44,342 bases of DNA. It comes from a virus. Its lineage: Duplodnaviria; Heunggongvirae; Uroviricota; Caudoviricetes. A program made the position numbers and the translations under genes. The notes under the pieces are model-generated. The model saw nothing but the letters and a program-made list of their open reading frames with translations, was not told the DNA's origin and made no database searches. Positions 24,692 to 29,513 of this stretch are shown here, piece by piece. Positions within the stretch are counted from its first letter, which is position 1. Every line of letters starts with the position of its first letter. The stretch is taken from positions 1 to 44,342 of IMG/VR virus record IMGVR_UViG_2547132254_000004; one strand, given 5' to 3'.

Positions 24692-24731
24692 TCCTGGTTA
24701 AATTTCATTTTTCGCGGGTATAAAAAACGAT

Positions 24732-25252: not shown

Positions 25253-25573
25253 TTAAATCAAATTGCCGATAAATTTCGCCTGTACAGACAGAGTCGCACC
25301 AGGAACACCAGCAATTCCACCTTCAAGGTAATAACCATCCCCAATATCTCTCACTGAGAGATCCATCACATAATCGTTAAGGCCTGCAATAACGTTTTGT
25401 GCTGAAGGGTTGTGGCGGGATACATGAAGTTTCAATACCCCATCTTGTACACGCCCCTGATAGGTAAACCCAAAATCACCACCATTAACCGCATTATCCT
25501 TCACAACGACCGTGCCATTGCCAACATCATTATGACCGCTTCTGAACACAACAAAATAAATGCCGTCTTTCAT
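25253..25573 (-). CDS. GrlR-like protein (tentative), moron after the lysis cassette
   Basis: 106 aa (MKDGIYFVVF...GGD...YQG...LHVSRHN) resembling, from memory, the LEE regulator GrlR; AAGGA RBS; AT-rich gene and upstream region; own terminator. Confidence 0.4.
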   Translation of the reverse strand: MKDGIYFVVFRSGHNDVGNGTVVVKDNAVNGGDFGFTYQGRVQDGVLKLHVSRHNPSAQNVIAGLNDYVMDLSVRDIGDGYYLEGGIAGVPGATLSVQAKFIGNLI

Positions 25574-25665
25574 GTGTATAGTCCTTCAAAAAAATCACCC
25601 AAATCAGGTGCTTTGTATCTATTGGGTCATCACATATCAAATCAAGGAACAAAATAAAGTGAACA

Positions 25666-25935
25666 TCATTTTTTTTGCATGATGTGACCACGCTCAACTT
25701 CAATCCTTCTGATGTCAGCTTTATCGGTATTACACTGCGCCAATGCAGACAACAAGGCGGCATTCAGATCTAAGCTCGAGCCCCACGTAAAATGATCAGG
25801 TAAATCAGGCTGAGGGGTTTCAACCGTCAGGCTGGCTGGCAGTGGTGCCGTCGGAGTGTTCACGTAAACTGTCCGCGTACTTCCGCAACCGCTCAGCAGC
25901 GGCAGCAGGCACAAGACGTGAAGCACAATCATCAT
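25666..25935 (-). CDS. Rz1: Rz1-like o-spanin lipoprotein
   Basis: Alternate-frame ORF overlapping the 3' end of Rz; MMIVLHVLCLLPLLSGCGS lipobox then Pro-rich sequence; start placed at tandem ATGs 25930-25935. Confidence 0.6.
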   Translation of the reverse strand: MMIVLHVLCLLPLLSGCGSTRTVYVNTPTAPLPASLTVETPQPDLPDHFTWGSSLDLNAALLSALAQCNTDKADIRRIEVERGHIMQKK

Positions 25936-26675: not shown

Positions 26676-27002
26676 TTACTCCTTAGAGCCACCAAATTTG
26701 TTACCGATTACTCGCATTGCAGCCCCACGAATAGCATCGACACCGATCAGCCCCACCCCACCACCAATGGCAACAGATAGTGATTTAGGCCATCCGACAT
26801 ACTCAAGAGCGGATGCAAAAGTCAGCGTCAGAGCGCCACAGAGTAGAATTTCGAGTGTTTTTCGCTTCCAGCCGCCACCACCGCCAAAATAGGCAATACG
26901 TAAACCAGCCATAACAATCGACATAATCACTGCGCCCAGCGGTGTGTCTCCACGCCACCAGCTCTGGACCAACTCCAGCCAGGTATTTGGGTTATGAGGC
27001 AT
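26676..27002 (-). CDS. S: Holin (class I, three predicted TM helices)
   Basis: 108 aa with three hydrophobic segments and a charged C-terminus, directly upstream of the endolysin. Confidence 0.7.
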   Translation of the reverse strand: MPHNPNTWLELVQSWWRGDTPLGAVIMSIVMAGLRIAYFGGGGGWKRKTLEILLCGALTLTFASALEYVGWPKSLSVAIGGGVGLIGVDAIRGAAMRVIGNKFGGSKE

Positions 27003-27153
27003 TTGTAGTTATCTCTCACCTCGCCAATACAGGAGGTGCAAATTGAGGGAACATCATGTACCGCAAATCAGAAGCGGAAACGTAAAAGAGGCCGAGCCAA
27101 TGGATAACTGCGGTATAGACCAGGCTCAACAAATAGCCGGGGCCAGAAACGAC

Positions 27154-27175
27154 AAACCCGCTCGACGGCGGGTTT
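27154..27175 (-). terminator. Hairpin in the late leader upstream of the holin (tR'-like, weak)
   Basis: AAACCCGC-N6-GCGGGTTT stem with a partly U-rich 3' tail on the minus strand, ~150 nt upstream of the holin start. Confidence 0.3.
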
Positions 27176-27402
27176 AAGCTGTGTGGCGAAGTGACCACTC
27201 TTAACACGATACAATAGTTTTTGCGTACGCGTTAGCATTTTTGATGGAAGTTAATGGTTGTTAATCTTATACTCAGTAAACAAAATTTATGCCGCCTTGA
27301 GCATGATGCGACATTAGGCACATGTTTGGATCTTCCTCGAAGATTCGTGCGGTAGCTATGCTCAAAATCCAATCAGCTCATAAAACATACTATGGGTTTT
27401 AA

Positions 27403-28092
27403 ATGCTCATTCCAACATCTCTATCAAAACAACCAGTAATCGAAGCTGCTTTCGAAATGCGTTTTTCTAAAGAAACACAAATATCGGAAATAGTTCCAGG
27501 GTTTCTTTTTCACGCTCTAGGTTGTACAAAACCAGTAATTAGTTTACCACCCAGTCAAATACCTAAAAATGTTCGTGAGGGAGATGAACAATTACATTAC
27601 GCAGTTGTCAGTCGCCTCGAAATCGAAGGGTACTATATTGGACTAAGTGACCATGGTGTTGTTGTATCCACCAGCACCAAATATCAAGGGTGGAGTCATT
27701 TTAGAGAAAAAATCATTCATGTATTAAATGAGCTTAACAAATTAAATTTAAATGACAACATCATCCGCTACTCATTAAAGTATGTAGATTTTTTCCCAAA
27801 AGAAGACGATTCTAATTTATTTGATAAGCTAAACGTCAGCTTAAATATGGCTGGCGAGTCTATGTCTAATTATCCGATCAATATCAGAATCGATAAAAAT
27901 GAAGGCGCATTTCTAAATATAATTCAAATATTATCTCATGCTTTAGTCATGTCAGATAATGGAGAATTTAATAAAAAAGGACTAATCCTAGACATAGACA
28001 GCATTAGGCAAATCACTAATACTGATGAAATAGATAAGTTTAAAAACGAACCAAAAAAATTCTTGATGATCTTCACTCCTGTAATAAATTAG
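27403..28092 (+). CDS. Hypothetical protein P1 of the AT-rich Q-S cassette
   Basis: 229-aa ATG ORF; AT-rich; opposite strand to all flanking phage genes; N-terminus KQPVIEAAFEMRF vaguely recalls the uncharacterised TIGR04255-type family (uncertain). Confidence 0.5.
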   Translation: MLIPTSLSKQPVIEAAFEMRFSKETQISEIVPGFLFHALGCTKPVISLPPSQIPKNVREGDEQLHYAVVSRLEIEGYYIGLSDHGVVVSTSTKYQGWSHFREKIIHVLNELNKLNLNDNIIRYSLKYVDFFPKEDDSNLFDKLNVSLNMAGESMSNYPINIRIDKNEGAFLNIIQILSHALVMSDNGEFNKKGLILDIDSIRQITNTDEIDKFKNEPKKFLMIFTPVIN

Positions 28093-28166
28093 CTTTCTTT
28101 AGTTGCCTTAAAGAGTCAACAATTCAAGAACTAGAACCATCCTACAAATAGAAATGGTGGTATGAT

Positions 28167-28511
28167 ATGTATCCGTCTCATCATGTTTATCGAGCTCAAC
28201 TTCAAGTATTAACTTTGGTTTTATATGGTCTGCATATAACTGCATTAACAGACATTGCCCAAAATCAACAGCATGGTCCTCAACAAAGTTTAATCGTCAA
28301 AAATCACGCTTTGGAGTATAAGTCTTCAACTACCGATTCAGTTCATTCCATCACACAAACATATAAAGCAGGGAGCACAATCTCAGTTGATCAAAGACTT
28401 GCAGTCTCGATGACAAACTTTTATGAAAAATTATCGACAAACCAGGTGTCTTTAGGCAGTGAAATAAATAAAGTCGTTCATGCTTCACTGTGGGATTTAT
28501 ACTTGGATTAA
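28167..28511 (+). CDS. Hypothetical protein P2 of the Q-S cassette
   Basis: 114-aa ATG ORF with GGTGG 8 nt upstream. Confidence 0.45.
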   Translation: MYPSHHVYRAQLQVLTLVLYGLHITALTDIAQNQQHGPQQSLIVKNHALEYKSSTTDSVHSITQTYKAGSTISVDQRLAVSMTNFYEKLSTNQVSLGSEINKVVHASLWDLYLD

Positions 28512-28514
28512 GTG

Positions 28515-28748
28515 ATGAGTAATAACATTTTTGATATCGAGAAATTCAAAGATCAAATTCCATATTATTTAACAGCTCATCAAAAAGAAGGGCTAATAAA
28601 TGCACTTAGAGATTTCCCTGAAAACACTAACTACTACCTTAGCAATTATCATGATGATCTGAAAAATGCTGCACTCCAGGGAGATATATTTAAGGAGCTT
28701 ACAGTATATTCAATTAAAGGGACTAAAAAACACGAGGCATTATATTAA
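28515..28748 (+). CDS. Hypothetical protein P3 of the Q-S cassette
   Basis: 77 aa; TAA-GTG-ATG junction with P2 suggests translational coupling. Confidence 0.45.
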   Translation: MSNNIFDIEKFKDQIPYYLTAHQKEGLINALRDFPENTNYYLSNYHDDLKNAALQGDIFKELTVYSIKGTKKHEALY

Positions 28749-28792
28749 GCAACAGTTGCGATATAGATACAAGTAATAATCGTGATGTGCCA

Positions 28793-29128
28793 ATGCGTGC
28801 AGTCTTTGCTCCGTTAGTAAGTTTATCTAAGTTCGAAGCTATTCTTCTCTCCAACGGAGTTTCTAAGACTTCAATAGATAGCAAAATTGATGCTATAAGG
28901 AAGCAGTTAATTACTAATATTTTTTATCTTCCTGAATCAGACAACTTAGAAGAATGCATCGTTTTTCTTGATGATGTATACCAATTACCAACGGAAGAAT
29001 TACAAAAACTCTTGAATGATAAATGCAAAGCCATAACTTTAAGTCAAGTTGGTTTCTACATTTTACTATTCAAAATATCTATTCACTTTTGTAGATTCCA
29101 TGAAAACATACAACGATTCGATCATTAA
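28793..29128 (+). CDS. Hypothetical protein P4 of the Q-S cassette
   Basis: 111 aa from ATG 28793 (track starts at GTG 28787); followed by an intrinsic terminator. Confidence 0.4.
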   Translation: MRAVFAPLVSLSKFEAILLSNGVSKTSIDSKIDAIRKQLITNIFYLPESDNLEECIVFLDDVYQLPTEELQKLLNDKCKAITLSQVGFYILLFKISIHFCRFHENIQRFDH

Positions 29129-29156
29129 GGCGGTACTACCGCCTTTTATTATTTTA
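29127..29156 (+). terminator. Rho-independent terminator ending the Q-S cassette
   Basis: AAGGCGG-TACTA-CCGCCTT followed by TTTTATTATTTT, overlapping the P4 stop and abutting the Q stop. Confidence 0.55.
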
Positions 29157-29513
29157 CACAAGTATACTTACAACCCCCTCTATAAAACCGATTGCGGTTT
29201 GCAACTCCTTCCTAATAGTGCCATCAGAGCACCTTCTCCTTTTGGCAATAGTGCGTAATGAGATACCAATAACAAAGTGGGCTATGATGAGCTCATATTC
29301 CTCTGGTTTATACTTTCTCAACCGAGCCACACAACTGTCTATCATAATGCCTTCGTCATCATCACACTGAATCCGTGACTTTTTGCCATGAGGTAAAAGC
29401 CCCTTGAAGCCTGCTGCTACCGGCTGCCAGTCCACACCACTGTTGTCTGCTGCAGCCCATGCTCCCCAGCGGTCCAATACTTCATACATATCACGCATCA
29501 ACTTACCCCACAA
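29154..29513 (-). CDS. Late-gene antitermination protein Q-like
   Basis: 119 aa at the end of the early-right operon upstream of the lysis genes; sequence compatible with the phage-82-type Q family by recollection. Confidence 0.6.
   Translation of the reverse strand: MWGKLMRDMYEVLDRWGAWAAADNSGVDWQPVAAGFKGLLPHGKKSRIQCDDDEGIMIDSCVARLRKYKPEEYELIIAHFVIGISLRTIAKRRRCSDGTIRKELQTAIGFIEGVVSILV

Follow-up and report, generated by a model that had tools for sequence, protein, structure and literature searches.

The described systems closest to the locus analysed here are the toxin modules MazEF, Kis-Kid and CcdAB, the tripartite toxin-antitoxin (TA) and defence systems (TAC chaperone systems, helicase-assisted ietAS/DarTG and type II Gabija), and the cargo that phages carry at particular slots, such as lambda rexAB after cI, P2 old/tin and stx between Q and S. 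In type II Gabija, a MazF-like domain in GajC acts as an effector in phage defence (PMC13069673), and Rousset et al. showed that the gpA-gpQ cos-proximal hotspot of P2 holds old/tin and other defence systems (PMC9122126). Here we describe a three-gene cassette, A-B-C, within a 44,342-nucleotide stretch of DNA from a virus of the Caudoviricetes (IMG/VR virus record IMGVR_UViG_2547132254_000004, positions 1 to 44,342; this whole stretch is referred to as the window). Gene A encodes a TIGR04255 family protein, gene B a small acidic protein and gene C a protein predicted to have the MazF/CcdB toxin fold. We see an even chance that A-B-C is a toxin-based defence or exclusion module expressed in the lysogen.

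The cassette resembles each of these systems in part. As in mazE-mazF, the gene directly ahead of C specifies a small acidic protein and is translationally coupled to C, and C has GD..., ...S.....N and ..P.. landmarks at strands equivalent to those of MazEF, Kis-Kid and CcdAB. As in the tripartite systems, three components are built around a toxin-like effector. Like rexAB, old/tin and stx, the cassette is a self-contained AT-rich cargo at such slots, and cargo of its type is swapped between otherwise homologous prophages.

A conserved three-gene operon

The cassette occupies an AT-rich block at approximately 27200-29150 of the window (30-37% GC against 50-58% in both flanks), in which the open reading frames (ORFs) lie on the plus strand while Q and the lysis genes on either side lie on the minus strand. 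The first-pass annotation, which had described an AT-rich antisense block against flanks of about 50% GC, is borne out on both counts. When intact, the cassette consists on the plus strand of gene A (27403-28151, 249 amino acids), gene B (28167-28511, 114 amino acids, identified by profile hidden Markov model (HMM) matches, alignment and phrog_5728) and gene C (28515-29128, 204 amino acids); in the window B is intact and A and C are frameshifted. The junction TAAGTGATG at 28509-28517, already pointed out in that annotation, is present and joins B to C. A plus-strand hairpin resembling an intrinsic terminator, AAGGCGGTACTACCGCCTT with a T-run (29127-29153), closes the cassette against the Q stop codon, which agrees with the terminator placed there previously.

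A-B-C is one conserved, mobile and translationally coupled operon, because the three genes co-occur in order and are tightly coupled across loci. Scanning one genome per species with a profile of C gave 60 loci, and 47 viral loci came from IMG/VR. Profile HMMs recovered the full order A-B-C from 57 of 66 sources (the 60 genome loci included) and from 45 of the 47 viral loci. At almost every locus A and C are separated by an ORF of 100-120 amino acids, which in most cases overlaps the A stop codon by 8 nucleotides, and the spacing of B and C is 0-12 nucleotides. The hosts comprise Alpha-, Beta-, Gamma- and Deltaproteobacteria, Bacteroidota, Ignavibacteria and a few low-GC metagenome-assembled genomes (MAGs). 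The genes around chromosomal copies are of mixed kinds, among them those for integrases, AriA-like ATPases, restriction-modification components and reverse transcriptases. Frameshifted or truncated copies occur in several other genomes, and such decay fits a dispensable, potentially toxic module.

Two further arrangements were seen. A divergent triad of approximately 243, 95 and 195 amino acids is present in three low-GC MAGs of Bacilli/Tenericutes type (L061 6782-8371, L062 8951-10564 and L063 8761-10378), preceded in L062 by two helix-turn-helix (HTH) genes. Its third protein keeps QGD and GI(V/I)LSN(S/T)CD and lacks the C-terminal HFCRFHE motif of C, and its first protein gave no match to TIGR04255. 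In Allochromatium palmeri, a canonical PemK/MazE pair immediately adjoins A-B-C (L002 2300-2847).

The three proteins

A is a clear member of TIGR04255 ('sporadTIGR04255'), a family without an assigned function, scoring 96.2 bits against an NCBIfam cut-off of 30 over residues 7-244 of 249. The A proteins of phages Dobby and VW-6S and of the Ignavibacteria copy also pass this cut-off. The AlphaFold2 (AF2) model of A, with a predicted local distance difference test score of 91.9, has a two-lobed α/β fold that appears similar to TBP, Med20 and AdoMetDC, and no enzyme-like structural match to the model was found. The earlier remark that none of the proteins could be recognised with confidence is thus overturned for A and stands for B and C in sequence searches, where comparison with Pfam (2025), PADLOC, NCBIfam (2026), PHROGs and the PDB returned only PHROGs of unknown function. 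No mention of TIGR04255, of the WP accessions of the cassette or of its signature peptides was found in the papers searched, and a recent description, for example in Brenes & Laub 2025, may exist. The link of TIGR04255 to B and C, both of which RefSeq calls 'hypothetical protein', appears not to have been recorded previously.

B is small and acidic, with a median isoelectric point (pI) of 4.6. Its N-terminal half is variable and includes a moderately hydrophobic stretch, while the C-terminal region carries a conserved motif of approximately 40 residues, FYxxLxxxQExLGxEFExVLxxNLWxLYxS, and the median net charge of the last 45 residues is -6. With a median KD19 of 1.5, the hydrophobic stretch is borderline for a membrane protein. 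Measured against the E. coli copy, median identity falls from 42% in C to 32% in A and 25% in B, which makes B the fastest-evolving of the three.

C is predicted by its AF2 model to adopt the MazF/CcdB toxin fold, an SH3-like barrel, elaborated by helices at the N-terminus, a helical insertion and, at the C-terminus, a helix with HFCRFHE. The 466 homologues detected are typically 45-50% identical between phyla, and the invariant motifs of C are IPYYLT, LQGD, GIILSNSCD..N.R..P, FAP and KLSIHFCRFHE..R. A profile search of the PDB with C returned no MazF. A zinc site formed by C82, H191, C193 and H196 was also considered; it is weakened by the C protein of Culturomica, which has HFTRIRE, and by the low-GC clade, which has YFMRPED.

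Three genes and two frameshifts

The same DNA occurs at >=99% identity in 92 of 5,426 complete E. coli genomes searched by megablast (approximately 1.7%). In these relatives the block measures 1951 bp rather than the 1949 bp of the window, and RefSeq annotates three genes, a 249-residue TIGR04255 family protein followed by hypothetical proteins of 114 and 204 residues. The intact 1951 bp are spanned by every match among the matches listed (30 of the 92 genomes), and all 16 of the 16 E. coli-type IMG/VR copies are intact. Compared base by base, the window differs from its relatives by two 1-bp deletions in poly-A runs and one substitution at 28676.

Each deletion falls in a conserved part of a protein. 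The plus-strand run at 28053-28059 has seven A residues in the window and eight in all intact relatives, and its contraction places the last ~30 residues of A out of frame. ORF1 (27403-28092, 229 amino acids) is consequently A without its conserved C-terminus (K229, F232, F233, P246 and Y248), which resumes in another frame and ends at the stop codon at 28149-28151, and the profile HMM of A matches the window in two frames. The second plus-strand run, at 28725-28730, has six A residues where intact relatives have seven. It splits C into ORF3 (28512/28515-28748) and ORF4 (28787-29128), breaking the protein inside the first β-hairpin just ahead of the invariant GIILSNSCD. The four genes of the first-pass annotation therefore become three. 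Four ORFs with start codons are indeed present in the window, but in every relative examined ORF1 is a truncated A and ORF3 and ORF4 are one gene. The literal reading of four independent small genes is left with next to no probability and is ruled out by the annotation of the relatives and by the base-by-base comparison. For annotation, the four ORFs of the window are best taken as frameshift artefacts or pseudogenes of three genes.

The window copy thus appears either inactivated or mis-sequenced, and it may be inactive since two of its three genes are frameshifted. Whether it is a dead remnant, in which real slippage mutations inactivated A and C, is evenly poised. The contractions remove the C-terminus of A and split C ahead of GIILSNSCD, copies are intact in the listed E. 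coli matches and in the IMG/VR set, and independent decay is seen at other loci. Inactivation was possibly selected, an unbalanced toxin system being costly. Three indels occur in 10.8 kb of prophage that is 99.3% identical, each a loss of one base in an A-run of >=7, and this is also the signature of homopolymer under-calling on some platforms; slippage and under-calling are not separable from the window sequence alone. Other long homopolymers nearby are unchanged (A7 at 25588 and T8 at 25669), so that only three of five runs of >=7 are shortened and a blanket homopolymer sequencing error is not supported. The third contraction, at 24721 (A7 to A6 relative to the E. coli relative L001), falls in the intergenic stretch that separates the gene for the terminase small subunit from the HNH gene.

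A cargo slot between Q and the late leader

The slot that holds the cassette lies between Q and a putative late leader and is a variable cargo hotspot of this prophage lineage, because its flanks are conserved while the gene content between them differs. The right flank is the Q antiterminator gene (29154-29513, minus strand; PF06530, 1.4e-44), which is also annotated in L001. On the left lies a minus-strand lysis cassette of a lambda-family holin gene (26676-27002; PF05106, 5.7e-25), which is its first gene left of the hotspot, a GH24 lysozyme gene and a DUF2570 Rz-like gene. Four related E. coli prophages (L066-L069) have in common with the window the KilA-N/DUF968/Q backbone and the leader; in two of them, L066 and L067, the holin and lysis genes are shared as well. 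At the slot they carry four different cargoes, all antisense to Q and all of 30-37% GC (L066 1470-2216; L067 1483-2813; L068 1639-4010; L069 1676-3075). One is a single 248-residue protein whose N-terminus matches the PADLOC candidate PDC-M68A (7.5e-27), CBASS HNH endonuclease effectors and SduA. The other three, a 273- and 161-residue pair, an NA37 nucleoid-associated protein with a 408-residue protein, and a DUF6731 protein with a 147-residue protein, had no PADLOC match and are further uncharacterised candidates. Homology to these prophages breaks at approximately 27213-27241 at the left edge and 29144-29172 at the right edge, not far from 27208 and 29156, where the first-pass annotation had set the ends of the insert, and its view of the block as an inserted accessory module gains from the four alternative cargoes found in the same place, which mark the block as exchangeable. 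A transposon-like insertion was considered and rejected, as no direct or inverted repeats flanking the cassette were found.

The cassette recurs at other phage slots. Pseudomonas phage VW-6S and four IMG/VR contigs carry it directly downstream of cI and in the orientation of cI. In the P2-like genomes of phage Dobby and of many P. aeruginosa prophages it stands at the end and converges on the portal gene, a site that corresponds to the gpA-portal (gpA-gpQ cos-proximal) hotspot of PMC9122126. A Citrobacter prophage with a different lambdoid backbone has it in the same Q-holin slot, and Klebsiella prophages have it in the nin region, in antisense orientation.

The relation of the slot to late transcription probably differs from that of stx. 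A conserved minus-strand segment to the left of the cassette (27153-27241), part of the backbone rather than the cargo, is inferred from comparison of four prophages to be the late promoter, qut and leader region (putative PR'/qut). It contains a terminator-like hairpin at 27176-27153. Within it the segment 27205-27240, which includes the palindrome GCGTACGC, has the sequence TTTTTGCGTA-CGCGTTAGC in prophages having the Q allele of the window and AAAATGCGGACCGCGTTAGT in those with a different Q allele, and this allele-linked segment is a possible Q-binding (qut) element. Since the terminated leader, one segment of which covaries with the Q allele, is on the left-hand side of the cargo, Q-dependent late transcripts would probably begin past the cassette and not run through it. 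The cassette would then sit between Q and the late promoter, outside the late transcript, and would meet head-on only read-through from the early operon. The earlier comparison with the Q-S moron site of stx thus holds as to location, late co-transcription of the cassette being unlikely, and the accompanying statement that the cassette is oriented against late transcription becomes doubtful.

Upstream of A, the plus-strand segment 27242-27402 is specific to the cargo, homology to prophages with other cargo ending at approximately 27240, and is the presumed promoter region. Blocks within it are kept in the enterobacterial cassette copies L086-L090 (63-64% identical), namely GTTAAyCTTATACT (27260-27273), a hairpin or palindrome (27329-27347) and CGTGCGGTAGCTATGC. 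The palindrome reads GAGTCTT...AAGACTC in the relatives and GGATCTT...AAGATTC in the window, with one compensatory change and the invariant CGTGCGGTAGCTATGC after it, and a regulatory role is possible. Across the family, no equivalent of this palindrome was found upstream of A, and inverted repeats upstream of A were not enriched, the best of them not exceeding shuffled sequence in length (5.76 against 5.51).

Two observations concern the surrounding prophages. A minus-strand gene of 106 amino acids (window 25253-25573, ~41-45% GC), between the HNH/terminase and Rz genes, has a sub-threshold Pfam match to the type III secretion system regulator GrlR and is labelled a GrlR family regulatory protein in RefSeq; a GrlR-family gene lies at the equivalent position in a Citrobacter prophage (L118 4697-5017), and the gene looks like a second accessory (moron) gene of the phage lineage. 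In Citrobacter loci L118-L121 (11500-16600), the genes of an arsenic-resistance cluster, for ArsP, an ArsR-like HTH protein, ArsC, ArsB and ArsA, lie beside the prophage early region, past DinI/RusA.

Function of the cassette

A fuller proposal, with somewhat less than an even chance of being correct, is that A-B-C is an undescribed and widespread three-component anti-phage system of several temperate phage families, in which a TIGR04255 protein and an acidic adaptor control a non-canonical effector of the MazF/CcdB fold whose own invariant Q-G-D, S-N-x-C-D and H-x-C-R-x-H-E residues replace the MazF catalytic pair. On the broader defence or exclusion reading, given an even chance above, a promoter of the operon itself would drive its expression in the lysogen. 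C would be a growth-arresting effector, working through nuclease activity or through attachment to a target, and B would restrain it as inhibitor or adaptor. A, as sensor or regulator, would sense or transmit a cue of infection, such that a superinfecting phage triggers abortive infection or exclusion to the benefit of the prophage. Defence or exclusion is favoured because the cassette combines a toxin fold, a coupled, acidic and fast-evolving partner, a larger binding-type protein, mobility, decay and residence in slots of exclusion genes. The accessory-module reading of the first-pass annotation is supported likewise by the toxin fold predicted for C and by the phages that carry the cassette after cI and in the P2 hotspot (PMC9122126). 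No homology of the cassette proteins to routine phage or housekeeping functions, to which that annotation had attached weight, was found in family searches.

Comparison with described defence systems places the cassette outside those that were searched. In the tables of evaluated systems within the supplementary portion of Rousset et al. 2022 considered here (PMC9122126), neither signature peptides of A or C, nor accessions, nor 'TIGR04255' occur. Identity with the three-gene P2-hotspot system of the same study ('three genes with no predicted domain') was rejected, as A and C are absent from the supplementary sequences in that portion. A-B-C was likewise not found in the supplement of Vassallo 2022. 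A type III TA module of the ToxIN/AbiQ/CptIN kind was rejected because the cassette region contains no tandem repeats and no Rfam match; searches of that region for flanking repeats were also negative.

A number of observations weigh against a toxin-based defence system. The structures of both A and C are predicted models. No Pfam family, PF02452 included, matched C at E <= 10, and comparison of C by hhalign with a small MazF/Kid set, with six MazF sequences, gave a probability of 1.7%. By manual correspondence, the equivalent of MazF R29 is the residue ahead of invariant G75, which is mostly K or R and in some homologues T, L or A, and the equivalent of T52 is P100+2, which is I or V with no threonine after P100; on this alignment the catalytic Arg/Thr pair of MazF appears not to be conserved in C. 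HFCRFHE is not universal, with exceptions in L051 and L061-L063, and C is not basic (median pI 6.25). The PADLOC check that had been suggested for a known defence system came back empty, PADLOC-DB v2.0.0 (2023) giving zero families at E <= 1 for A, B or C. No antitoxin DNA-binding domain or antitoxin homology was recognised in B in Pfam and PADLOC searches, and a TA-style operator upstream of A was rejected for want of a family-wide operator-like palindrome. No consensus sigma-70 site was found on the plus strand upstream of A and no promoter was identified. Many chromosomal neighbours are housekeeping genes, and enrichment in defence islands is weak, judged from a qualitative mix only.

Several of these points are shared by an alternative that we regard as rather improbable, in which the barrel of C is a binding scaffold and A-B-C has a non-toxic accessory or conversion function, modulating a host or phage process such as lysogeny/lysis regulation or host physiology. 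The apparent lack of conserved MazF catalytic residues, the invariant set that C has of its own and its lack of basic character would all suit such a role, as would the want of an enzyme-like match for A, the silence of defence models and the many chromosomal copies among housekeeping genes. It is countered by the strict co-inheritance of three genes across phyla and in five phage slots, which points to a self-contained module untied to one phage pathway, and by the nuclease defence candidate among the alternative cargoes of the slot.

The second alternative, unlikely but slightly more probable, is a three-component TA addiction module that stabilises the prophage or mobile element, with C as toxin, B as labile antitoxin and A as chaperone or regulator. 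The MazF/CcdB fold predicted for C and the small acidic gene translationally coupled directly upstream of it are what such a module would have; the cassette is found on prophages, beside integrases and at many unrelated chromosomal sites, decayed copies exist, and a tripartite TA system with a chaperone is mentioned in PMC13069673. Neither an antitoxin-type DNA-binding domain nor a conserved operator was found, however, and the recurrent slots for defence or exclusion genes, after cI and in the P2 hotspot, fit defence at least as well. The two readings overlap, as many TA modules defend.

Relationship to known systems

If the intact cassette defends lysogens, the known defences of prophages would gain a compact system of three genes, a first function could be assigned to the orphan TIGR04255 family, and a further way in which the MazF/CcdB fold has been rebuilt would come to light. 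The Q-to-leader slot is a cargo hotspot worth mining.

Relative to MazEF, the cassette has a third, larger gene upstream, encoding the TIGR04255 protein A, and B has no homology to MazE or CcdA. C is twice the size of MazF, with a helical extension and insertion and the HFCRFHE helix, and neither Pfam nor hhalign sees a sequence match between them. In contrast to the tripartite systems, the partners of C include no SecB-like chaperone, helicase or GajB. GajC, a split MazF domain with a five-helix insertion (PMC13069673), can be set beside C by description only. The cargoes RexAB, Old, Tin and Stx have no sequence or domain relationship to A-B-C. Unlike stx, the cassette is antisense and apparently upstream of the late leader, so that it would not be driven by Q-dependent late transcription.

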